NCBI GenBank assembly: GCA_964444665.1
Contig: CAYUIE010000008.1
Coordinates: forward strand, 17,163 to 81,162
Direction: 5' to 3'
From: an uncultured Pirellulales bacterium
Lineage (GTDB): Bacteria; Planctomycetota; Phycisphaerae; Sedimentisphaerales; CAYZTY01
Length of the DNA stretch: 64,000 nucleotides
The notes under the pieces are model-generated. The model did no database searches. It saw nothing but the letters and a program-made list of their open reading frames with translations, and was not told the origin of the DNA. The position numbers and the translations under genes are program-made. Positions within the stretch are counted from its first letter, which is position 1; the number at the start of each line of letters is the position of its first letter. Below, piece after piece: positions 26,378-37,765 of this stretch.

Positions 26378-26914
26378 ATGAAAGTTATCCTTAATGCAGA
26401 GCAGATATCAGCACTTATCAGAAAAATGGCCGATTCCATTGCTTCCGAGGCTGCTGCCGGTGTTGATATTGCAGTGATAGGTATTCGCAGGAGGGGTGAG
26501 GTCCTGGCACAAAGACTTTCTCAGGAATTATCGGAACTTCTCGGCCATAATATTTGCTGCGGCGCCCTCGACATCACACTGTATCGAGACGACCTTAATT
26601 CCCACCAGGGACCTGAGCAACCAGAGGTCAGGACTACCGAAATAGGTTTCAGCATAGATGAAAAAAACATCATTTTAGTAGATGATGTCGTCTACACCGG
26701 TCGCTCAACAAGAGCTGCAATGGACGCTCTTATAGATCTTGGCAGACCCAAGGTAATGAAACTGGCTGTTCTTGTCGACAGGCCCGGCCGAGAGCTGCCC
26801 ATACAGCCCGACTATGTCGGGTACAGGGCTGAGGTCTCTCCGGGCAAATTGGTCCAGGTAAATCTGGTTGAATCGGACGGAAAAGACGAAGTCGTGGTCG
26901 AACAAACCAAATAA
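26378..26914 (+). CDS. pyrR: Bifunctional pyr operon regulator / uracil phosphoribosyltransferase PyrR
   Basis: IAVIGIRRRGEVLAQRL and PRTase motif IILVDDVVYTGRSTRAAMDAL. 178 aa. Confidence 0.9.
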   Translation: MKVILNAEQISALIRKMADSIASEAAAGVDIAVIGIRRRGEVLAQRLSQELSELLGHNICCGALDITLYRDDLNSHQGPEQPEVRTTEIGFSIDEKNIILVDDVVYTGRSTRAAMDALIDLGRPKVMKLAVLVDRPGRELPIQPDYVGYRAEVSPGKLVQVNLVESDGKDEVVVEQTK

Positions 26915-26915
26915 A

Positions 26916-27872
26916 ATGGCAAAAACAGGGCAAAAAAAAATTACTTGGCGGCATAAACATCTGCTCGGACTGCGTCAGTTAAGCAGGAATGAGATTGAAT
27001 ATATTCTCAAAACCGCCAAAGGATTCGAACAGATAAGCACTCGCTCGATAAAAAAAGCACCGCCTCTCCGGGGAAAAGTTGTAGTCAACCTGTTTTTTGA
27101 AGACAGCACTCGTACACGAAACAGTTTTACTCTTGCGGCACAAAGATTGAGCGCCGACGTCGTCGAGTTTACCAAAACAGCAAGTTCAGTAAGCAAGGGA
27201 GAAACTTTTCTGGACACTGCGAGGAATCTTGAGGCGATGGGAATTGATATTGTCGTGATTCGTCATAGCGCCGGCGGTGCACCGAGCCTGTTAAGCAAAA
27301 ACATCAATGCCTGCGTAATAAATGCCGGCGACGGCTACAACGAACACCCCACCCAGGGACTTTTAGATGCCTATACGATTCATAAACTCAAAGGCTCTCT
27401 GGACGGTCTTAAAATTGCGATTGTCGGCGACATAGCACATTCACGTGTTGCGCGCAGTGATATGTGGGCGATGACGAAACTCGGCGGCGAAGTTATATTC
27501 GTCGGGCCACCGACACTTATGCCGGCACAAGTTGAACAGTTGCCGGTCAAGGTCAGCTATCGCCTGGACGAAATTATTGATAAGGTTGATGTCATCAATA
27601 TGCTTCGGATTCAGTTCGAACGACTCGGCGGTAATCCGTTTCCCTCGGTACGGGAATATTCGCACTACTTCGGCCTGACGGTAGAGCGTATGAAAAGGGC
27701 AAAACCAGATATTCTGGTTATGCACCCCGGACCGATTAACAGGGGCCTGGAGATAGAAAGTGAAGTAGCCGACGGTTCAAACAGCGCTATCCTGAAGCAG
27801 GTAAAGAACGGCTTAGCTGTGAGAATGGCGGTATTATTTTTGGTTAATCAGGCGGCCGCGAAAGTAACATAA
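26916..27872 (+). CDS. pyrB: Aspartate carbamoyltransferase catalytic subunit
   Basis: FFEDSTRTRNSF, EHPTQGLLD, HPGPINRG. Start placed at MAKTGQ (26916), directly after the pyrR stop, instead of the overlapping 26868 ATG. Confidence 0.9.
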   Translation: MAKTGQKKITWRHKHLLGLRQLSRNEIEYILKTAKGFEQISTRSIKKAPPLRGKVVVNLFFEDSTRTRNSFTLAAQRLSADVVEFTKTASSVSKGETFLDTARNLEAMGIDIVVIRHSAGGAPSLLSKNINACVINAGDGYNEHPTQGLLDAYTIHKLKGSLDGLKIAIVGDIAHSRVARSDMWAMTKLGGEVIFVGPPTLMPAQVEQLPVKVSYRLDEIIDKVDVINMLRIQFERLGGNPFPSVREYSHYFGLTVERMKRAKPDILVMHPGPINRGLEIESEVADGSNSAILKQVKNGLAVRMAVLFLVNQAAAKVT

Positions 27873-27920
27873 AGCGTAAAATTAAAAGCGCAAAACCCCA
27901 AGTTTTGAAGGGCAGGGCAA

Positions 27921-29729
27921 ATGAGAAAACAAATTCTAATAGCGGCAGTATCGATGTTAATCTTTTTTCAGCCTGCTTATGCCGAGCAGGCAAGTCAGGA
28001 AGTTGTCGGCAAGGTATCAGAGGTCATAGTTTATCGAGGTCAGGCATTAGTCTGCCGGAAAATTGAAGTTAAGCCGCCCAACGATAATTTGGAACTTGTT
28101 GTGCGAAACCTCCCCGAAAAAATCATACCTGAAAGTCTTTACGCACAAGCTTCAGATGATGCGACAGTAACAAGCGTACGCTATCGTAAAAAAGAAGTGG
28201 AAGAAGACACACGCGAAGAAGTCAAGCAACTGGAAGCTGATATTGAAAAAGCCGAACTCCAGCTTCGTCATGCACAAGCCAACCGCAAAATAATCCAGAG
28301 ACATATGGATACAATCACTCAACTTCAGAACTTTACCATTACGGCTCAGGGCCATGACCTGAACCGAGGTTTACTGAAGTTTGAGCCTTTAGAGAACTTT
28401 GTAAGTCTGGCTGAGACAAAACGCAACGAATACCACAACAGTACATTAAAGCTGGAGGATGAAGTTATCGAGCTGAACAAGGAACTGGGGCTGTTGCGAA
28501 AGAAGCTGCAAAAACTTCAGGCTGGACGCAGCCGGATAGAACGAGAAGCAGTACTTGTTATAAAAAATCCAGGTAATAAGAAAGCCGATATTTATTTGAA
28601 ATATTTAGTAAGAGACGCAAGCTGGCTGCCGCAGTACAATCTTCGCGCCAATCAGAGTCCCTCCAAGGTCTCCATCGAGTACAACGCAATAATACATCAG
28701 GCCAGTGGGGAAGACTGGGAGAATGTTGTATTGAGTCTTTCAACCGCTCAGCCCGCAATGGCGGCAGGAGCGCCAATCCTGGAGCCTATAAAGGTGGACC
28801 TCTCCAAGGTTGGAGGAGGATATTGGGGGCGGCTAAGAGCAAGAAAGGCGGCAAAAGAACAAAAAGAGAATTTATTCGAATACGATAAAAGTGCATATAG
28901 AGACCTTAGCCAGGAGTTTAACAGGCTGCAAAGCCAGCGTCAGGAAATGGGCAGAAAAGGTGTAGCAGCGCAAAGCACGCTAAGCAAAGTAGCCTTAGAC
29001 AACCAGATGATGGAATTACAGGCGGATAAGGCTGCTTTAAAAGTGATGAAAAAGGAGGCAAGGCGATTTGCCCGCACGGAGGGAGTAAGCGTTACGTATG
29101 AGCTGGGCGGCGGATTGACGATGCCCAGCCGAAGCGACCAGCAACTGGTAACTATAGCTGCTTTCGAGGCCAAAGCTGATTTTCTAATGATAGGTACCCC
29201 CCTGATGACAGATTATGTCTATCTGCAGGCTGATATAATCAATGACAGCGATGTTATATTGCTGGCCGGTCCGGCCAGTATGTATCGCGATGTCGAATTC
29301 GTCGGCAAAGGCCGAATTGAAATGGTTACTATCGGTGAGAAATTCACGGCGGGCTTCGGGGTAGATAGTCAGGTGAAAATTTCAAGAGAATTCAAAGACA
29401 AGAAGGTCGATACCCTTTGGGGCAACAGGGTGGAAAAATATGACTATCGAATAGCCATCGACAATTACAAGAACATTCCAGTTAAACTTCGACTGCTGGA
29501 AAGGATACCTTATACCGAAAACGAAGAACTGGAAATTACAGGCTTCGAAACAAACGTTTCGCTCAGTACGGATAAAGAATATCTTAGAACCGAGAAAGAC
29601 AAGGGGATTTTACGGTGGGATTTGACCTTGAAGCCCGCTACAGTAGAAGAAAAGGCTACGATAGTAACCTACAGCTACAGTATGAAATACGATAATGATA
29701 TGCATATTCATTCATTGCCCGGACGGTGA
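27921..29729 (+). CDS. Secreted DUF4139/DUF4140-like (MuiA-type) protein
   Basis: Signal peptide then V..V.VY...A.V.R-type N-terminal beta segment, central coiled coil, and long C-terminal beta domain. The family call is from overall pattern memory, not a search. Confidence 0.45.
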   Translation: MRKQILIAAVSMLIFFQPAYAEQASQEVVGKVSEVIVYRGQALVCRKIEVKPPNDNLELVVRNLPEKIIPESLYAQASDDATVTSVRYRKKEVEEDTREEVKQLEADIEKAELQLRHAQANRKIIQRHMDTITQLQNFTITAQGHDLNRGLLKFEPLENFVSLAETKRNEYHNSTLKLEDEVIELNKELGLLRKKLQKLQAGRSRIEREAVLVIKNPGNKKADIYLKYLVRDASWLPQYNLRANQSPSKVSIEYNAIIHQASGEDWENVVLSLSTAQPAMAAGAPILEPIKVDLSKVGGGYWGRLRARKAAKEQKENLFEYDKSAYRDLSQEFNRLQSQRQEMGRKGVAAQSTLSKVALDNQMMELQADKAALKVMKKEARRFARTEGVSVTYELGGGLTMPSRSDQQLVTIAAFEAKADFLMIGTPLMTDYVYLQADIINDSDVILLAGPASMYRDVEFVGKGRIEMVTIGEKFTAGFGVDSQVKISREFKDKKVDTLWGNRVEKYDYRIAIDNYKNIPVKLRLLERIPYTENEELEITGFETNVSLSTDKEYLRTEKDKGILRWDLTLKPATVEEKATIVTYSYSMKYDNDMHIHSLPGR

Positions 29730-29743
29730 ATCTGAGAGCTTTT

Positions 29744-31063
29744 ATGAGTGAAGTTTTGATAAAAAACGGTCAGGTTATAGACCCGGCAAATGGTGTCAAT
29801 AAAAACTGCGATGTACTTATCATCGACGGCAAGATTGCAGAGGTCGGCAAGAAGATGGAAGCCTTCCCTGAACAAAGCCGAAGGGACAGAGGACAGAAGA
29901 CAGAAAAGGAAAGAAAAATAATTGATGCTACCGGTAAATTAGTAACGCCGGGCCTGATTGATATTCACGTTCACTTTCGTGAGCCGGGTGACGAGGAAGA
30001 AGAAACAATAGCAAGCGGCTCGGCAACAGCTGTTGCCGGTGGATTTACTTCGGTGGTTTGTATGCCGAATACAAACCCACCCATCGAAAATGAAACCGAT
30101 GTCGAATATATCCACCGAAAGGCCAGGCAGGCCAGAAAAACTCACGTCTATACAATGGGAGCTATCACAAAAGGCCGAGAGGGAGTCGAGCTTGCAGAGA
30201 TGGGATTTATGATTGATGCAGGGGCCGTCGGTTTTACCGACGACGGCAGAGGCGTACAGGACCCGGCAGTAATGCTGCGGGCTTTGAAATACGCGGCGAT
30301 GTTTGATGTGGTAATTGCCCAACATTGCCAGGACAACAGGATTTCCGGCAACGGCGTGATGAACGCCGGCTACTATTCGACGATATTAGGACTGCCGGGA
30401 TTAGACCACTTAGCCGAAGAAGCGATGCTGTGGCGGGATATACAATTAGTCAAAAAGACCGGCGTGCGTTACCATGCCCAGCATATATCAACGGCCGGGT
30501 CGGTTGAATTGATAAAAGCCGCCAAGAAAAATTCTTTGCCGATTACCTGTGAGGTGACACCGCACCATTTACTTTTAACCGAAGAGTGCTGCGCAGAATA
30601 TGATACCAACTACAAAGTCAATCCCCCCTTGCGAAGAAACCAGGATATAAAGGCACTGAAAAAAGCAATTGCAGAAGGTCTGGTTGATGCGCTGGCCAGT
30701 GACCATGCGCCACATCTGCAAAGTGAAAAAGAGCTCGAATTTCTGGCCGCTCCGTTCGGTATCTCCGGCCTCGAGTGCGCGCTGGGCCTTTATATTAAGG
30801 CGCTCATTGAGCCGGGTATACTCGATTGGCCGGGGCTGATTTCACTGATGACCGAAAGGCCGGCCAAAATAATCGGCATCGATAAAGGCACACTCAGCAA
30901 AGGTAAACAAGGCGACGTTACAATTATTGACCCCAATGCCGAGTACACAATCGACGTAAAAAAATTCCACTCCAAAAGCAGAAACTGTCCCTATCACGGC
31001 TGGAAGGTCAAAGGCAAGGTCGAAAAGACAATCGTCGGCGGCGAGGTAAGATTCGAAGCATAA
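29744..31063 (+). CDS. pyrC: Dihydroorotase
   Basis: MSEVLIKNGQVIDP, GLIDIHVHFREPG, ASDHAPH. An alternative GTG start at 29726 overlaps the upstream stop. Confidence 0.9.
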   Translation: MSEVLIKNGQVIDPANGVNKNCDVLIIDGKIAEVGKKMEAFPEQSRRDRGQKTEKERKIIDATGKLVTPGLIDIHVHFREPGDEEEETIASGSATAVAGGFTSVVCMPNTNPPIENETDVEYIHRKARQARKTHVYTMGAITKGREGVELAEMGFMIDAGAVGFTDDGRGVQDPAVMLRALKYAAMFDVVIAQHCQDNRISGNGVMNAGYYSTILGLPGLDHLAEEAMLWRDIQLVKKTGVRYHAQHISTAGSVELIKAAKKNSLPITCEVTPHHLLLTEECCAEYDTNYKVNPPLRRNQDIKALKKAIAEGLVDALASDHAPHLQSEKELEFLAAPFGISGLECALGLYIKALIEPGILDWPGLISLMTERPAKIIGIDKGTLSKGKQGDVTIIDPNAEYTIDVKKFHSKSRNCPYHGWKVKGKVEKTIVGGEVRFEA

Positions 31064-31121
31064 GATGCTTGATATTTGTGTGGGGCTGTCTTCTGTTTTC
31101 CGCTCTGCAGGAATTCACTTT

Positions 31122-31149
31122 TTGATAAAATCGGCTTTTATGATATAAT
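31122..31149 (+). promoter_or_regulatory. Candidate promoter of rnpB
   Basis: TTGATA (31122-31127), 16-nt spacer, TATAAT (31144-31149). The first P1 nucleotide is 7 nt downstream. Confidence 0.6.
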
Positions 31150-31155
31150 CTATTA

Positions 31156-31631
31156 ATGAGTGGGTCGGGCGGTCGCTCCGCATTTATTGCGGGGAGGAAA
31201 GTCCGAGCAGGACAGGGCACGGTGGTGGCTAACGGCCACCTCCCGATATATCGGGACGGGAAAGTGCCACAGAAAATACACAGCCGATGGCCCGAAGCGT
31301 CCGGGCACAGGCAAAGGTGAAAAGGTGCGGTAAGAGCGCACCGCGGTGACGGTGACGTCGCCGGCAGGGTAAACCCCACCGCCTGCAAGACCAAATAGCT
31401 GGTTGCTCGGCCCGGGCACACGCCAGCGGGTAGGTCGCTTCCCGCTTCGTCGGGAGAGCCGGTCGGCAACGGCCGGTCAAGATAAATGGCCGCCATCTCG
31501 CACCTATTTTGAGAGTACAGTGAAAATCTTGATATTAGAGCTTTGATAAAATTTTAGCCTTATTCGCCAACTCGACGCTGGATTCTCAAAATAGGTGCGG
31601 GATACAGAACTCGGCTTACAGACCCACTCAT
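31156..31631 (+). ncRNA. rnpB: RNase P RNA, bacterial type A, with a large extra hairpin between P2(3') and P4(3')
   Basis: 11-bp P1 (ATGAGTGGGTC 31156-31166 / GACCCACTCAT 31621-31631), P4 strands GAGGAAAGTCCGAGC and ACAGAACTCGGCTTA, GGTAAGAGCGCACC and AGATAAATGGCCGCC consensus blocks. 476 nt. Confidence 0.93.
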
Positions 31632-31803
31632 TTTAATTGATAATTTATTATTTATTATTGATTATTAAGTATTAAGTTCTCTCAACAGCCATTGTTTCAA
31701 CATTTATTATTCCATCCTGGGAATACCTGTCGATAAATAAGTATGAGCCCTTATCTGTTAATAATTAGCCACAATGGAATAATAAAAGGTCTTTAAAAGC
31801 TTT

Positions 31804-31831
31804 TTGACAACAAAAGTTGCAGTGGTATAAT
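31804..31831 (+). promoter_or_regulatory. Near-consensus promoter for the TPR lipoprotein-lspA operon
   Basis: TTGACA (31804-31809), 16-nt spacer, TGgTATAAT extended -10 (-10 hexamer at 31826-31831). Confidence 0.6.
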
Positions 31832-31881
31832 ATAGCCCCAAGTTGAATCGGCCGTCTCAAAGATATTGAGGGATAAAACAT

Positions 31882-32871
31882 ATGCAAAGCTCGCTGGGCA
31901 GCCGCAGCGCTATTATGGTGTGCATTGCCATTGGAATGCTGTTTTTCGTCGGATGTGCTCAACGACAAAAGGCGGTAGATATGTATGTTGACGCGGTGAT
32001 GCTAAGAGAGATAAATGAGACCGAAAAGGCGGTTGGCAAACTTAATTCCGCAGTCGATCTGAATCCGAAATTCTCACTGGCCTATTCGCTCCTCGGCGAT
32101 ATCCACGAGGAAAGAAAGGAATACGAACAAAGCGCCGAATCGTATGAGAAAGCGACCGAGCTAAACGCCTGGTCGTTCCACGACTTTTTCAATCTCGGGC
32201 GCGTCAGACAGATTTTAAAAGACTTTGTCAGGGCCGTTACGGCTTATACCAGAGCCTGTGAGCTTCAGCCCAGTCATATGGAGGCGCACCTGAACATCTC
32301 GAAATGCTACCTGGAGCTTAAAGACCTTGAGAACGCGCTGCTGTACGGACAAACAGCAAAAGAGATTGACCCGAATGTGGCCGAGATAGAAAAAACGCTG
32401 GGACAGATATATCAGGCCCAAATGGACTATCATCAGTCTATCACTTCCTATCGAAGAGCCCTCGAGCTTGAAGGCAATAATCCGGATATTATGAGGTTTC
32501 TGGCTGTATCGTATCTTAAGATAGAGCGTTATACCACGGCTAATGAATTGCTGCAGGAGTTGATGCGAATTGACCCAAACGACGGCGAAGCCTACCAGTA
32601 TTTGGGCTACTGCAACCTGAGACTCAAGCGGCTCGAAGAGGCGATAGATAGCTATAATCGTGCTATTCGGATCAACGAGAATGACTGGGCGGCATATAAG
32701 GGTTTAGGGGTGGCTTATATGCTCAGCGCAATTACAAACAAGGATGATGAGTTAAAGGAAAAAGCAATCGAGCAGTGGAATATTTCGCTGCAAATCAAGC
32801 CTGGGCAACCAAAGTTAGTTAAACTATTGCGAAAATACGAAGGAGACTTTCAGGGCCGGGCCGGTCGATGA
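31882..32871 (+). CDS. TPR-repeat lipoprotein
   Basis: Lipobox MLFFVG|C, followed by about 7 TPR-like 34-aa repeats (A..Y..A...P......LG..Y). Confidence 0.7.
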   Translation: MQSSLGSRSAIMVCIAIGMLFFVGCAQRQKAVDMYVDAVMLREINETEKAVGKLNSAVDLNPKFSLAYSLLGDIHEERKEYEQSAESYEKATELNAWSFHDFFNLGRVRQILKDFVRAVTAYTRACELQPSHMEAHLNISKCYLELKDLENALLYGQTAKEIDPNVAEIEKTLGQIYQAQMDYHQSITSYRRALELEGNNPDIMRFLAVSYLKIERYTTANELLQELMRIDPNDGEAYQYLGYCNLRLKRLEEAIDSYNRAIRINENDWAAYKGLGVAYMLSAITNKDDELKEKAIEQWNISLQIKPGQPKLVKLLRKYEGDFQGRAGR

Positions 32872-33470
32872 AAAACGGCATTAACGGCGGCTTAAACGTG
32901 ATGGACTCAAATACAGAAACACAGTCGGCCCGGCAGCAGCCGGGCGGTTTATTAAACACACTACCGGATTCCAAGACACACCTGATTTTCTGGCCGATTA
33001 CGGCGGCGGGCGTAATACTCGATTTATGGAGCAAGAAGGCGGCGTTCGAATACCTGCAGGACAAAGGCGGTCCCGTTTCTATTATAGGGGGTTTTCTACA
33101 ATTGAGGGCTCAGCAAAATCCCGGTGCAGCCTTCGGTATAGCAACCGGCCGACCGATATTACTAATATCGATTTCAATCATTGCGATGGTTGCGGTGCTT
33201 ATGCTTTTTCTATTCGGCAAAATTCAAAAAAAACTCCACTACATAGCGCTTGCCATGTTCAGTGCCGGTGTGCTTGGCAACCTTTATGACAGAGTTTTCA
33301 ACGACGGCTATGTCCGGGATTTCATTGATGTTTATTACCGGCATTGGCATTGGCCGACTTTCAATCTTGCCGACACTATGCTTTGTATCGCCATCGGGAT
33401 TCTGGTTATATCGAGCTTCTGCAAGCCTACTGATAAAGACTATCAAAAACGTGCTCTGCAACATAAATAG
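32868..33470 (+). CDS. lspA: Lipoprotein signal peptidase (signal peptidase II)
   Basis: QNPGAAFG, LGNLYDRV, FNLADTMLCIAIGILV. About 40-aa N-terminal extension. ATGA overlap with the upstream gene. Confidence 0.85.
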   Translation: MKNGINGGLNVMDSNTETQSARQQPGGLLNTLPDSKTHLIFWPITAAGVILDLWSKKAAFEYLQDKGGPVSIIGGFLQLRAQQNPGAAFGIATGRPILLISISIIAMVAVLMLFLFGKIQKKLHYIALAMFSAGVLGNLYDRVFNDGYVRDFIDVYYRHWHWPTFNLADTMLCIAIGILVISSFCKPTDKDYQKRALQHK

Positions 33471-33822
33471 GGATGCGTAAGGAGGCCCCTAGCGCGATGG
33501 CGTCTGACGGGCGGGAGTCGATCTCCACAAGCTTGCCATTGTAGCTTATATGTATCTTTGCATAGAATGTATGCCTGCGAAGGTCGTTGATTATGATTTT
33601 TTCGAGCTTGCCCCCCATATGTTTAATTACGCTCTCGAGCAGCTCGTGAGTCAAAGGTCGCGGTGGTTCAATTCCTTTCAAGCGACGGTCAATGGCGAAG
33701 ATTTCCGTGATTCCAATTACGATGGGAAAGCTGCGGTCGCCGTCTCGCTCCTTGAGGACTATTATTTGTTCGTCGGTACTCTCATTAATAATTATACGCG
33801 ACAGTTCAACTTCAATATCCAT
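33427..33822 (-). CDS. Bifunctional nuclease family protein (DUF151/BFN)
   Basis: RSFPIVIG..E...I.......PPRPLTHELL ... SRPSDAIALGA motifs. 131 aa. Confidence 0.75.
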   Translation of the reverse strand: MDIEVELSRIIINESTDEQIIVLKERDGDRSFPIVIGITEIFAIDRRLKGIEPPRPLTHELLESVIKHMGGKLEKIIINDLRRHTFYAKIHISYNGKLVEIDSRPSDAIALGASLRIPIYVAEHVFDSLYQ

Positions 33823-33928
33823 TTTTGCCCCGTATTTACATAAAACTACAGCGTTTACAATACTCCTCAGCCGTAAAAGCCGGTTTTCTCTTCCCGTTAT
33901 TACGCAGGATTTTCCTATTTGTTTTACA

Positions 33929-36900
33929 TTACGCCGTTAATTCTGCAAGGTGTTTTTCAATCGCTTTCAACTGTTCTGTCAACTCAGCCAGTCTATCCCT
34001 TGCCTGAGCAACAACTTCTGGCTTGGCTTTGGTAAGAAAATTTTTATTGGCCAGCCTGGTCTCCACGGCTGTCCTGGCTTTTTCTACTTCTTTCTTTTGC
34101 TTTTCCAACCGCCGTTGCTCAGCAACTGGGTCAATCATATCGTGAACATAAATCTGGGCCGTGTCCGCGATTGTAACAGCCGAGTTTGGGGGTTTTACAA
34201 TAGCTGCCCCCGCTCGAAATTCCTTTACTCCTGCTAACTGAAGTATCAGTTCTTCATTTTCACTTAAAACTTTTACATTTTCCTGACCAAGTTTTGCGGA
34301 TACTAACAACAACTCACTCTGTGGTTTATTATATTCACTTCTGACGTCTCTTATTGCCCGGATTACAGACTGGATAAGTGTAATTTGCTTTTCAGCATCC
34401 TCATCTCTCAGGTTTTCCAGGTCTCCCGGCCATTGGGCGATAACCAATGCATCAGATTTTTCTGCCTTGGCAAGGCCTTGAAGTTTTCTGACGGGAGCGA
34501 TTTCGTTTAGCTTCTGGAAAATTCCTTCGGTGATAAACGGCACAAACGGATGCAACAATCGCAGGCTCTGGTCCAGCACAAACGCCAGGACGTTTTGAGC
34601 AATCTGTCTTTGCTGCTTATCCTGCATTCTCGGCTTAGCCCATTCGAGATACCAGTCACAAAAATCATTCCAGAAAAACCGGTAAATCTGCGCCAAAGGC
34701 TCACTATATTTAAATTCATCCAATGATTCTGTTACCGCGGAAATAGTTTGCGCCAGGCGGGAGAGAATCCACCTGTCGGTAATCGTCATCTTTTCTTTAT
34801 CAAAGCCGGCCGGGTCGACGCCCTCAAGGTTCATCAGGGCAAAACGGGAAGCGTTCCAGAGCTTATTACAGAAGTTTCGGCCGATATCAAACTTGGGCGA
34901 TGTATTTACCGTCCGCCCGTCGGGCAGCTTCATTTTTTTCACCGGCATACGTACGTCCTGCGTCTGCGTAGTCATACTGGCCAGGGTAAAACGCATTGCG
35001 TCGGCGCCGTGGCTGTTGATTGCAACAAGCGGGTCGATGCCGTTGCCTAAGCTTTTAGACATCTTGCGTCCTTCGCCGTCCTGAATCATAGCGTGAATAA
35101 AAACGTCACTGAATGGAATATCGCCGATGCAATACTGGCCCATCATTAGCATACGCGATACCCACAGCGTGATAATCTCACGCGCAGTACAAAGCACATC
35201 ACCCGGATAGAAGGTTTTTAAATCATCTGTATCGTCCGGCCAGCCCATCGTGCTGAATGGCCAAAGCGCCGAACTAAACCAAGTATCCAAAACATCCTCA
35301 TCGCGATTCCAAACCTGTACATGCTTCTCAAACTCGGAGCAAGCCTTTCGTCTTTCTGGCACACCTGTAATACCCTCAACCCGTTTAATACGAGGAAACG
35401 CTTGCCCCGGCTTTATTGCGCCTATACCATCAGGGATGGAAAATAGAAACTTACCAACTAGATTGAGGATATCATCACCATCTGGCGTTTCGAGACATAC
35501 GTATCCAGTACACAATTCGCTTTTGGAAGCACAAACTCTGAAACCAATATCTTCGCGCCCAAAAGCACGCAATAAATCTTTAAGTGCGGTTTCAAATATT
35601 GGAGTTGGATTGGAATATTCGGAAGCACTTAAGTTGGCGCTTTTGAGTTCCATTTTCCAAATTGGTATTCTATGCCCCCACCAGAGCTGTCGGCTGATGG
35701 GCCAGTCGCGCAGGTTTTCCAGCCAGGCCTGGTAGGTTTTGGCATATCGCTCAGGGATAAACCGCAGTCGGCCGTCAAGCAGTGGTTTCAATGCCAGGCC
35801 GGCCAAGGAATTCACAGGTACATCAGTGCCCCTGATAAAATCTTCTTCAAGGCACAAGTCACGAGTCACGAGCGACGGAATCGGTTCCTTGACGGCGATA
35901 TACCACTGGTCGGACAGATACGGCTCGATAGGTACGTGGCTGCGATAACTATGGCCGACCTCGTGGGTGTATTCGCGAACATCATCGAGCAATTTTTCCG
36001 TTCGGAACCACTCGACGACGGCCTCGCGGGCCTCGAACCGGTCCATACCGATAAGATTTTCAACATCGGGATTTTTAATATCTTCCCAGTCCGTCCAGCC
36101 ATATTTGTCGCTGATGGAGCCGTCCGGCGCCATAACGTTTACGATTGGCAGACTATTTCGCTGGCCGATTTCCCAGTCGTCCGGGTCGTGAGCGGGCGTT
36201 ACCTTCAAAAAGCCGGTCGAGAATTTGGCCTTCTCATCTTCACCGTCAGGGTCGGGCAGCACAACATGCTCATCAGCAATTATAGGAATTATGCGTCCGA
36301 CAATCGGCAGCCGTACCATCTTACCCAGCAGATGTTTGGCTCGTGGATCGTTCGGATTCATTGCAACGGCCGTATCACCAAGCATCGTTTCGGGCCGGGT
36401 AGTAGCGACGGTAACGTGTGTTATTGTGGCACGGGCATCTTGCCCGTGTATCTTGCCTATCGCGTCCGGACTTACGCCAACCCACGCCCAATTTTCAAGT
36501 CCCGCCTTGGCAGGATTATTGAGGATATAGTCGACTTGGTGGTTAAAGTCTTCTTCTTCACGGATGATATGGTCGTAATATTCGTCTTGCCAGAACGACT
36601 CGTTGCGTCCCAGCAATTTATTGGCTTTGTTTGCCGTATACGATTTCCAGGAATGTAGTATGGTCGGTAATTCTTCTCCTGGGCGTGGTCTTATTACTGC
36701 GTGTACATGATTCGGCATAATCACCCATACAATCAGATCATATCGTTTGCCGTCAAAGTGCTTCAAGGCATTCTGAACCAACTCGGCAATCCTCGGATCT
36801 CGCAGATAGCATCGCCCATGTCCTGCGTTGAGAAACGACTCAACATGGTCACAATAGAGTCGCGTAAGCTCTCGTTGTTCCTTCGGTGTTGGCTCACGGC

Positions 36901-37765
36901 CTTGTGTCCCAGCCTGCTGAACAAACCTGTCGCGTTGCGAGTGCCAGCGTTCAAGCACCTCGGCAGGCAACGAGTCAGCCAAACGGAATGTTACAGCATA
37001 TGTCGAACCGGCCTGAGTCCAATGAGGCAGATATGCACCTTTTCGCCTACGGACCACCTCATCCACGGCCTGGAAGGCCGTGCCACATGGGACCTCAACC
37101 GGCTCAACTAATGGATAGCGCATATACCAGAAATGCCCTTTTACCGTCTCGTGCTCGACTTCATCGTCGGCCAGCACGGTCTGCGTTGCGGGGTCCCAGT
37201 TGACAAGTCTTTTGCCGCGATAAATCAGGCCATCCTTAAAGAGCTGGAAGAACGCGGCCCGCACTGCCTTCGCGCAAACAGGGTCCATCGTGAAGCGCGT
37301 TCTGGCCCAGTCGCACGAGCAGCCCATCGCCTTTAACTGATTAATAATTGTGGCTTCGTATTCGTCCTTCCAGGCCTGCACATGGGCGATAAACTCATCG
37401 CGCTGGAAATCTGTGCGTTTTTTGCCTTGTTCCGCAAGCAGTCTTTTCTCAACAACGGTCTGAGTGGCGATGCCGGCGTGGTCGGTGCCCGGGAGCCATA
37501 GCGTGTTATATTTTTGCATCCGCCGAAACCGAATCAGGATATCCTGGAGGGTATTATTTAGTGCGTGTCCTAAGTGCAGCGGAGCGGTAACGTTAGGCGG
37601 CGGGATAACAATCGTATAAGGCTTAACCGCCCTGCCGTCGCCCGAAGCGCCTGTACTGAGCGTAGCCGAAGTATTGGCGTGAAAATAACCGCGCGAGAGC
37701 CAGATTTCGCTTACATTTTTTTCCGTCTGCTCAGGCTCGTAAGTTTTTTCAAGTTCTACTGACAA
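33929..37765 (-). CDS. valS: Valine--tRNA ligase carrying two large in-frame insertions (1278 aa)
   Basis: TTG start. PPPNVTAPLHLGHALN (HIGH), ATTRPETMLGDTAV, WPISRQLWWGHRIP, DEDVLDTWFSS, KMSKSLGN, C-terminal coiled coil. Uninterrupted ORF. Confidence 0.93.
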   Translation of the reverse strand: MSVELEKTYEPEQTEKNVSEIWLSRGYFHANTSATLSTGASGDGRAVKPYTIVIPPPNVTAPLHLGHALNNTLQDILIRFRRMQKYNTLWLPGTDHAGIATQTVVEKRLLAEQGKKRTDFQRDEFIAHVQAWKDEYEATIINQLKAMGCSCDWARTRFTMDPVCAKAVRAAFFQLFKDGLIYRGKRLVNWDPATQTVLADDEVEHETVKGHFWYMRYPLVEPVEVPCGTAFQAVDEVVRRRKGAYLPHWTQAGSTYAVTFRLADSLPAEVLERWHSQRDRFVQQAGTQGREPTPKEQRELTRLYCDHVESFLNAGHGRCYLRDPRIAELVQNALKHFDGKRYDLIVWVIMPNHVHAVIRPRPGEELPTILHSWKSYTANKANKLLGRNESFWQDEYYDHIIREEEDFNHQVDYILNNPAKAGLENWAWVGVSPDAIGKIHGQDARATITHVTVATTRPETMLGDTAVAMNPNDPRAKHLLGKMVRLPIVGRIIPIIADEHVVLPDPDGEDEKAKFSTGFLKVTPAHDPDDWEIGQRNSLPIVNVMAPDGSISDKYGWTDWEDIKNPDVENLIGMDRFEAREAVVEWFRTEKLLDDVREYTHEVGHSYRSHVPIEPYLSDQWYIAVKEPIPSLVTRDLCLEEDFIRGTDVPVNSLAGLALKPLLDGRLRFIPERYAKTYQAWLENLRDWPISRQLWWGHRIPIWKMELKSANLSASEYSNPTPIFETALKDLLRAFGREDIGFRVCASKSELCTGYVCLETPDGDDILNLVGKFLFSIPDGIGAIKPGQAFPRIKRVEGITGVPERRKACSEFEKHVQVWNRDEDVLDTWFSSALWPFSTMGWPDDTDDLKTFYPGDVLCTAREIITLWVSRMLMMGQYCIGDIPFSDVFIHAMIQDGEGRKMSKSLGNGIDPLVAINSHGADAMRFTLASMTTQTQDVRMPVKKMKLPDGRTVNTSPKFDIGRNFCNKLWNASRFALMNLEGVDPAGFDKEKMTITDRWILSRLAQTISAVTESLDEFKYSEPLAQIYRFFWNDFCDWYLEWAKPRMQDKQQRQIAQNVLAFVLDQSLRLLHPFVPFITEGIFQKLNEIAPVRKLQGLAKAEKSDALVIAQWPGDLENLRDEDAEKQITLIQSVIRAIRDVRSEYNKPQSELLLVSAKLGQENVKVLSENEELILQLAGVKEFRAGAAIVKPPNSAVTIADTAQIYVHDMIDPVAEQRRLEKQKKEVEKARTAVETRLANKNFLTKAKPEVVAQARDRLAELTEQLKAIEKHLAELTA
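36422..37102 (-). mobile_element. REP-flanked RayT/IS200-like (COG1943, Y1 HUH) transposase module embedded in frame in valS
   Basis: valS aa ~222-448: RRRKGAYLPHW, YAVTFRLADSLP, VIMPNHVHAVI (HUH), WQDEYYDHIIR, VDYILNNPAKAGL (catalytic Tyr helix). Bounded by hairpins at 37064-37082 and 36430-36448. Confidence 0.75.

Follow-up and report, generated by a model that had tools for sequence, protein, structure and literature searches.

A 109-nt hairpin in a planctomycete RNase P RNA as a probable elongated helix P19, and related hairpins recurring within rnpB genes

The stretch of DNA analyzed in this study (the window) is 64,000 nucleotides (64 kb) in length and carries, on its forward strand, rnpB, the gene for RNase P RNA. 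The class A RNase P RNA model RF00010 matched positions 31157-31634 (+) with a score of 257.7 bits and an E value of 7.9e-83, the gathering score being 100, and the match found by cmscan covered model positions 1-367 of 367. The conserved regions that form P4 (GAGGAAAGUCCG ... ACAGAAYNCGGCUUA) and the J18/2 sequence AGAURAAUG were all found in the alignment, and P4 (CCGAGC / AACUCGG) has an A-U pair in place of the consensus G-C pair, that is, it covaries. A promoter ends 8 nt before the start of the RF00010 match, and the promoter block is kept in L066, a related metagenome locus. The features of the gene are as follows.

31122..31149 (+): sigma-70-like rnpB promoter, TTGATA-16-TATAAT with a TG extension, 11/12 consensus matches
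31155-31166 / 31621-31632: P1, a 12-nt perfect inverted repeat
31157..31634 (+): rnpB, RNase P RNA type A, RF00010 257.7 bits, whole model covered
31440..31455 (+): extra mini-hairpin TCCCG-CTTCGT-CGGGA in the interval between the P15 3' strand and P18, about 15-16 nt absent from the RF00010 consensus
31488..31494 (+): P2 3' strand GGCCGCC, from the cmscan alignment
31495..31603 (+): 109-nt hairpin, probably an extended P19, from the cmscan insert, RNAfold and an inverted-repeat search, with homologues at the same site in L066/L081/L136, L083/L209, L102, L133 and L139
31497..31510 (+): conserved proximal 5' arm CTCGCACCTATTTT, common to L102, L133, L139, L152 and L175, covarying with the 3' arm
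31517..31581 (+): hypervariable distal part, rich in AT (36.9% G+C) and only weakly structured, unalignable with L081 or L083
31588..31601 (+): conserved proximal 3' arm AAAATAGGTGCGGG, covarying with the 5' arm
31604..31618 (+): P4 3' strand / CR-V ACAGAACTCGGCTTA, from the cmscan alignment

An earlier sequence-only reading of the window had described this RNA as, apart from the hairpin, a standard GC-rich type A RNA. The type A assignment was upheld by RF00010 and the rest of the gene is 62.6% G+C, but the description passes over the extra mini-hairpin between P15 and P18. The stem of this mini-hairpin (TCCCG/CGGGA, 31440-31455) is similar to the base of P19, and the site between P15 and P18 holds long P19-type hairpins in L133 and L120.

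The consensus match breaks after the P2 3' strand and restarts at ACAGAACUCGGCUUA (31604), leaving an unmatched insert of 109 nt, which extends from right after GGCCGCC to right before ACAGAAC and folds as a single hairpin; this is the site of P19. The pairing of ATCTCGCACCTATTTTGAGA (31495-31514) with TCTCAAAATAGGTGCGGGAT (31584-31603) gives 20 bp with one T-G (U-G) wobble, the inverted-repeat search delimited the arms as 31495-31520 / 31578-31603, and RNAfold predicted 22 consecutive pairs with an MFE of -42.8 kcal/mol and a z of -6.64, none of the 200 shuffled sequences being as stable. The hairpin proposed by the sequence-only reading, with its location between the P2 3' and P4 3' strands and its 20 bp with a single U-G, was thus confirmed by the RF00010 alignment and RNAfold; the suggestion that it is topologically P19 was borne out by the covariance-model alignment, and a recount returned the same 25 G+C in the 69 nt enclosed by the 20-bp stem. 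The contrast in composition is also real, with a G+C content of 38.5% in the hairpin versus 62.6% in the remaining rnpB. The distal part has a G+C content of 36.9%, versus 30-36% in the flanking spacers and 46.6% in the 64-kb window. Because this is near the value for local intergenic DNA, it fits unconstrained drift and not a foreign origin, which was considered in view of the G+C contrast and ruled out.

The literature documents P19 in type A RNase P RNAs of the Planctomycetes-Verrucomicrobia-Chlamydiae group (PMC9945441, citing Herrmann 1996/2000, Butler & Fuerst 2004; for these bacteria also PMC12974513, and a table of its presence in PMC2858038). The same sources describe a 4-nt linker at this site in RNAs that do not have P19 (PMC9945441) and a P19 that forms a coaxial stack with P2 and is directed away from the active site (PMC12974513). 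The known P19, present in type B RNAs of the Bacillus type and in type A RNAs of the group above, for example, that of Methylacidiphilum infernorum, occupies the same site as the hairpin in the window and is likewise an optional hairpin of variable length. The hairpin in the window differs from it in the size of the insert (109 nt, compared with 16 positions here in the RF00010 consensus and the 4-nt linker of RNAs without P19), in its uninterrupted stem of 22 bp and in its AT-rich, hypervariable tip.

Relatives of the window were identified through PyrC, which is encoded just upstream of rnpB and has hundreds of homologues with 80-89% identity, the named ones being labelled Sedimentisphaerales, Phycisphaerae or Planctomycetota. 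This affiliation is of importance in view of the P19 helices described above for the Planctomycetes-Verrucomicrobia-Chlamydiae group. Among 80 metagenome loci with PyrC at 77-94% identity, rnpB adjoins pyrC in L066 only, and this junction of pyrC with rnpB is confined to the closest relatives. L066, L081 and L083 were obtained by pyrC synteny or as the loci of the closest PyrC proteins, blind to P19. The rnpB sequence of L081 is the same as that of L066, L136 is the same as L081 (CAYZTY010000045.1), and L209 is identical to L083 over the compared part, which extends from J18/2 to the P1 3' end and includes P19. The rnpB cores of L066/L081 and L083 are 96-97% identical to that of the window, and hairpins are present at the same site, with a length of 106 nt in L066 and L081 and 94 nt in L083 and L209. 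A 10-bp base, ATCYCGCACC/GGTGCGGGAT, is common to the hairpins of the window, L066/L081 and L083, so that the hairpin must be older than the split of these lineages. Beyond this base, the hairpins of L081 and L083 are unalignable with that of the window, though the downstream spacer is 78% identical and the TPR gene 85% identical. That the tip cannot be aligned while the core and the spacer are conserved indicates that the distal part turns over unusually fast; this turnover is faster than simple neutral drift and implies events of replacement, remodelling or indel formation.

More distant relatives, L102, L139 and L133, which were matches of the survey described below, have rnpB cores 81-84% identical to that of the window and P19 hairpins of 104 nt (L102), 97 nt (L139) and 92 nt (L133) with a CGCACCTATTT-type base, which starts with GCCGCACCTATTTG... 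in L102, CCCGCACCTAAATG... in L133 and CAGCCCTATTTTTG... in L139. Accordingly, a long hairpin is present at the P19 site in every rnpB of the Sedimentisphaerales type that was retrieved, with a common covarying proximal stem, CGCACCTATTT/AAATAGGTGCG; of the five relative lineages, three (L102, L133 and L139) are from a scan that required a long insert and two are free of that bias. As for nomenclature, L136 (= L081) and L139 (CAYSKP010000071.1) are titled 'uncultured Pirellulales bacterium', and their rnpB, together with PyrC and the gene order in the case of L081, groups with Sedimentisphaerales/Phycisphaerae; the Pirellulales label of L136/L081 and L139 is probably a taxonomic misassignment.

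The pairing of the stem was analyzed in six sequences of the Sedimentisphaerales type, whose arms were anchored on the common CC/GG and whose pairs were then counted. As a result, 93.9% of the cells of this alignment were paired and 17 of the 22 pairs had changed on both sides, with the outer columns matched by position only. None of the 500 shuffles matched this covariation, and slid registers were only 34-50% paired. A-U/U-A swaps were found at positions 9 and 11-13 of the stem, between invariant pairs, and these swaps are true compensatory changes in a homologous helix. Among the matches listed, 17 of the 118 long P19s, belonging to several phyla, also had a base of the form CCNGCACY, compared with 0.4 expected by shuffling, and in an alignment of 20 sequences from several phyla anchored on this base, 94.7% of the cells were paired, with covariation at the third and eighth pairs, both the 20 sequences and the set of 17 having been picked by the GCAC motif itself.

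The sequence-only reading had considered the hairpin to be a recent insertion. In the related rnpB genes, the site was occupied instead by a long hairpin whose proximal stem is conserved and covarying. A conserved, covarying long P19 in relatives, which that reading had itself named as evidence to the contrary, contradicts a recent insertion into an RNA that had no P19. In our assessment, the 109-nt hairpin is quite probably helix P19 of the type A RNase P RNA of Sedimentisphaerales (Phycisphaerae, Planctomycetota), vertically inherited and elongated in this lineage.

An alternative origin to be weighed is a dispersed MITE- or REP-like mobile element that was recently inserted in rnpB, since the hairpin has terminal inverted repeats, an AT-rich interior and a sharp contrast in composition, and since several copies are present inside the rnpB of L133. 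The Correia elements of Neisseria are MITEs of this kind, with hundreds of dispersed copies, target-site duplications and hairpin transcripts that are cleaved by RNase III. The hairpin in the window is similar to them in its size of about 100 nt, its long terminal inverted repeats and its long RNA hairpin, but, unlike them, it has one copy in 64 kb and is restricted to rnpB across the loci examined. A search of the 64-kb window for the arm sequence at up to 3 mismatches returned only the two arms of the hairpin and no second copy, and a relaxed arm-pair pattern had one match, the hairpin itself. No arm-pair copies were found in about 0.45 Mb of Sedimentisphaerales pyrC-region loci, and the 824 kb flanking 120 other long-P19 rnpB genes contained 9 arm matches outside rnpB (0.011 per kb), which is a background level. 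Furthermore, the hairpin was present at the same site in all relatives retrieved, so that there was no presence/absence polymorphism among them, and no informative target-site duplication was found, the flanking AT...AT belonging to the palindrome. The idea of a MITE-like element was thus abandoned, in the absence of other copies in the window and of dispersion of the arms in the flanks; this alternative is highly improbable, and a dispersed MITE is effectively excluded for the window sequence. Viral contigs gave 14 single-arm matches, attributable to chance, and no hairpin, and a viral or mobile origin was ruled out.

To place the hairpin among those of other bacteria, we scanned one genome per species for AGATRAATG followed, after 63 to 123 nt, by ACAGAANNCGGCTTA, and this yielded at least 120 loci; because the gap of 63-123 nt and exact anchor motifs were imposed and at least 120 loci were listed, the frequencies given here are not estimates of prevalence. 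The matches were from Bacteroidota, Acidobacteriota (Pyrinomonadaceae), Planctomycetota, Patescibacteria, Desulfobacterota, Calditrichota, Alphaproteobacteria (Dongia) and others. GAGGAAAGTCC was present at most 520 nt upstream in 100 of 121 loci among the matches listed, and the gathering score of RF00010 was passed by 14 of the 18 loci checked. The inserts were 57-117 nt long, with a median of 72 nt, and at least 120 species representatives, spread over many phyla, carry one. Among the matches listed, at least 17 uninterrupted bp were found in 30/118 long P19s, at least 22 in 12/118 and a G+C of 0.40 or lower in 37/118; all 12 of the Planctomycetota matches listed had P19 hairpins, with inserts of 58-106 nt. 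Hairpins of at least 109 nt numbered only 4 of the 118 listed, in a survey already limited to long inserts, and the deficit in G+C relative to the core, which is 0.27 in the window, exceeded 0.20 in about 11% of the survey, among the matches listed. The hairpin in the window is therefore at the long, AT-rich end of the survey and is not unique. The earlier remark that P19 helices are normally short is accordingly apt in that the one in the window lies at the long end, but it does not extend to the at least 120 species representatives with inserts of 57-117 nt. In genome data, very long P19 hairpins with a near-perfect stem are a common feature across the bacterial phyla. The P19 hairpins of Acidobacteriota (Pyrinomonadaceae / Blastocatellia / Chloracidobacterium) were also observed to consist of reiterated palindromic units of the GATCTCAGA/TCTGAGATC type, with up to 26 uninterrupted pairs (L099, L101, L115, L134, L161, L170, L176, L178-L180, L185, L196, L198, L206 and L208), and units related to these are found again in other helices of the respective rnpB.

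In some of these genes, the hairpin was found more than once. The rnpB of L133 (L133:1933-2646, from the Sedimentisphaerales MAG DATEBC010000426.1) is 714 nt long and has arms of the window type, CCCGYACCTATTTTGRGA...TCCCAAAATAGGTGCGGG, in P3 and between P15 and P18 (J15/18), together with related arms, CACCTATTTGG in P12 and CACCTAAATG in P19, the core CGCACCTA being common to the four helices. The P19 of the window is nearer to the non-orthologous copies in P3 and J15/18 of L133 than to the P19 of L133, and the similarity includes an internal stretch, GCCAAC..CGCTGGAYTCYCAAAATAGGTGCGGG; that the arms of the window are nearer to non-orthologous copies indicates that sequence moved between helices at some point. 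In L152, P12 (2518-2621) and P19 (2771-2878), as assigned by cmscan, are 97% identical over 104 nt, and in L120, a hairpin just 5' of CR-I (P3) is 97% identical to P19 over 77 nt, with two further sites. Intragenic copies of P19 were also found in L199 (96% and 84%), L106 (87%), L183 (86%) and L205 (81%). Overall, the copies in L152, L120, L205, L199, L106 and L183 have identities of 81-97% over 63-106 nt, in Calditrichota, Patescibacteria, Saprospiraceae, Desulfobacterota and Planctomycetota. Among the matches listed, 25 loci had one or more intragenic copies, and the 18-mers of the P19 arms recurred at 0.50 per kb inside rnpB versus 0.011 per kb in the 824 kb of flanks, which is a difference of about 46-fold. 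The multi-copy cases are all from short-read MAGs, with no isolate genome among them.

A pair of Saprospiraceae was also compared. The P19 of L129 is the same as that of its sister species L199, whereas L129 has short or unrelated hairpins at two loops that hold copies of P19 in L199, with a junction of TGTCC|CGCAC...GTGCG|GGA in L199 versus TGTCC-TTTG-GGACA in L129. The near-identity of the copies, their restriction to rnpB and the contrast between L199 and L129 together indicate that the copies are recent, confined to the gene and located in terminal loops with CC/GG microhomology. From the junctions of these few cases, we infer that the intragenic copying may be inter-hairpin template switching or gene conversion. 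According to PMC8794818, template switching creates and maintains perfect stems in RNA genes, and the long P19 hairpins are similar to the stems and rRNA expansion segments considered there in being long, perfect and peripheral, in their multi-base compensatory changes and in their rapid remodelling; however, the stems described there are those of rRNA and not of RNase P RNA, and the copying of a whole hairpin to other loops goes beyond what its abstract describes.

One alternative is that the hairpin is a self-copying module, a P19-type unit of which duplicates arise in further terminal loops of its own rnpB gene, with the P19 of the window as one resident copy that has exchanged sequence with other helices. 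Such duplication could proceed by inter-hairpin template switching or by gene conversion at short CC/GG microhomologies, or an unknown targeted process could be responsible. The arms in P3, J15/18, P12 and P19 of L133 and their internal similarity to the copy in the window argue for such a module, as do the near-identical copies in L152, L120, L199, L106 and L183, the two loops of L129 that are free of the copies present in L199, the concentration of arms in rnpB relative to the flanks and, among the matches listed, the 25 loci with copies, and the documentation, in PMC8794818, of template switching as a source of perfect stems in RNA genes. On the other hand, the rnpB of the window itself has a single long copy, the multi-copy cases are all short-read MAGs and the mechanism is deduced from few junctions. 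We regard this module as a serious possibility, though one that falls somewhat short of an even chance; it is compatible with vertical inheritance of P19 and not opposed to it. In the same tentative sense, long P19 hairpins of several phyla may behave, together with their interiors, as a copy-and-paste unit inside rnpB genes, entering P3, P12 and the P15-P18 interval and not the flanks, with exchange between helices also in the clade of the window (L133). The notion of an insertion thus retains some value, in that the family of hairpins is copy-and-paste-like, but it applies only inside rnpB and not to a dispersed element.

STRR repeats reportedly occur inside the rnpB of heterocyst-forming cyanobacteria (Vioque 1997, Nucleic Acids Res 25:3471, listed in PMC2858038). 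STRR sequences are short tandem heptamer repeats, which are also dispersed in the genome, and are located in P12. The hairpins described here are similar in that repetitive sequence is tolerated in a peripheral helix of the RNase P RNA gene and different in that a single long palindrome is present at P19, with no copies seen outside rnpB. A search of the open-access literature found no description of intragenic copy-and-paste of RNase P RNA hairpins and nothing relevant on repeat-bearing bacterial rnpB, and this intragenic behaviour of the hairpin class is the part that may be new. If it is as suggested, it would represent an undescribed mode of growth of a ribozyme, probably via inter-hairpin template switching, and would result in RNAs of up to about 700 nt with identical perfect duplexes, which could possibly also be substrates of RNase III. 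About a fifth of the sampled species with a long P19 have the hairpin arms again in further helices of the RNA concerned, which provides a concrete, testable case of a ribozyme gaining expansion segments.

The conservation of the base across phyla and its reuse at several helices could also be explained if the CCNGCACY helix were a functional docking module, that is, a putative protein-binding or RNA-RNA contact site. The GCAC/GUGC base in 17 of the 118 long P19s listed, from several phyla, against 0.4 by shuffling is in line with this idea, although the set of 17 was chosen by the motif itself, and so is the presence of the same sequence at P3, P12 and P19 within genomes. However, no candidate partner was identified, and the paralogues also agree in their loops and interiors, with 97% identity over about 100 nt, which indicates copying rather than convergent selection. 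We consider such a docking function to be quite unlikely.

Cleavage of the hairpin in the RNA is a separate matter. Intervening sequences of 23S rRNA (in helices 25 and 45, in Salmonella, Campylobacter and others) are excised by RNase III and have a conserved proximal stem and a variable distal part. By analogy, the hairpin in the window would be comparable with them as an extended, near-perfect, AT-rich stem-loop at a terminal loop of an essential structural RNA, with a tip that varies between close relatives, and it would be a plausible substrate of RNase III. Those intervening sequences are sporadic and lie in rRNA, whereas a hairpin of the window type was seen in each of the relatives examined and its host is RNase P RNA. 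If the duplex of at least 20 bp were cut and the distal part discarded, the result would be a two-piece RNA held together by P1, P4 and the residual base of P19. The 22 consecutive pairs would make a duplex long enough for RNase III in a stem-loop that replaces a terminal loop, the conserved proximal stem and the freely varying distal part would suit such processing, and the perfect 12-bp P1 could hold the 3' fragment. The same pattern of conservation is, however, expected of a peripheral helix that is not cleaved; given how widespread long perfect P19 stems are, many phyla would have to tolerate cleavage, and a search of the open-access literature yielded no account of natural fragmentation in a bacterial RNase P RNA. 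To our knowledge, natural fragmentation of RNase P RNA is not known. An intervening sequence processed by RNase III would thus appear unlikely. The survey also raises the question of whether RNase P RNAs with several perfect duplexes of at least 20 bp remain uncut in cells where RNase III is present.

We return to the elongated, vertically inherited P19, which we favour. The proximal 14-20 bp of the hairpin are conserved in sequence, with pairing kept by compensatory changes, and the distal part turns over far above the rate of the neighbouring neutral DNA and has the composition of local intergenic DNA. Given that P19 is described as lying on the P2 stack, away from the catalytic core, the length of the tip may be tolerated and essentially unconstrained. 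The near-perfect long stem may be made and kept by palindrome-specific replication errors (template switching) together with selection against disruption of the base of the helix, and the insertion of a foreign element would play no part in its origin. Most likely, the RNA acts as an ordinary RNase P ribozyme in which the hairpin is a passive peripheral extension. For practical purposes, the rnpB of the window is intact and its hairpin would be a long, ordinary lineage-specific P19, so that neither an insertion nor a pseudogene should be annotated here by automated pipelines.

Several observations were also made on the neighbourhood of rnpB. ValS, encoded in the window at 33929-37765 (-), is a protein of 1278 aa into which an IS200-like Y1 transposase domain is inserted in frame (PF01797, 32.6 bits, residues 327-415; extra region of about 230-450), while ValS in the syntenic block has 1056 aa in L081 and 1046 aa in L084, about 220-230 aa shorter and with no PF01797 listed. 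A link between this domain and the hairpin was considered and rejected, as the orthologue in L081 is without the domain, yet L081 has a long P19. In comparison with window positions 31064-31156, L066 (1123-1900) and L081 (5276-6072), which represent the closest relative, have about 800 bp extra between pyrC and rnpB, including a HicB-like antitoxin gene, which is absent in the window, and the rnpB promoter block is kept on the rnpB side of this insert. The window was also compared over 26378-37765 with other loci. In L084-L088, mutL-gpmI precedes the TPR-lspA(-BFN-valS) block, with no annotated gap long enough for rnpB, and in L084, L085 and L087, which are Sedimentisphaerales-like, mutL-gpmI stands before TPR-lspA, followed in L084 and L085 by BFN-valS. 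In the clade of the window, by contrast, the pyrR-pyrB-DUF4139-pyrC cluster and rnpB precede the TPR-lspA block, and this difference indicates that a rearrangement placed rnpB at its present position.
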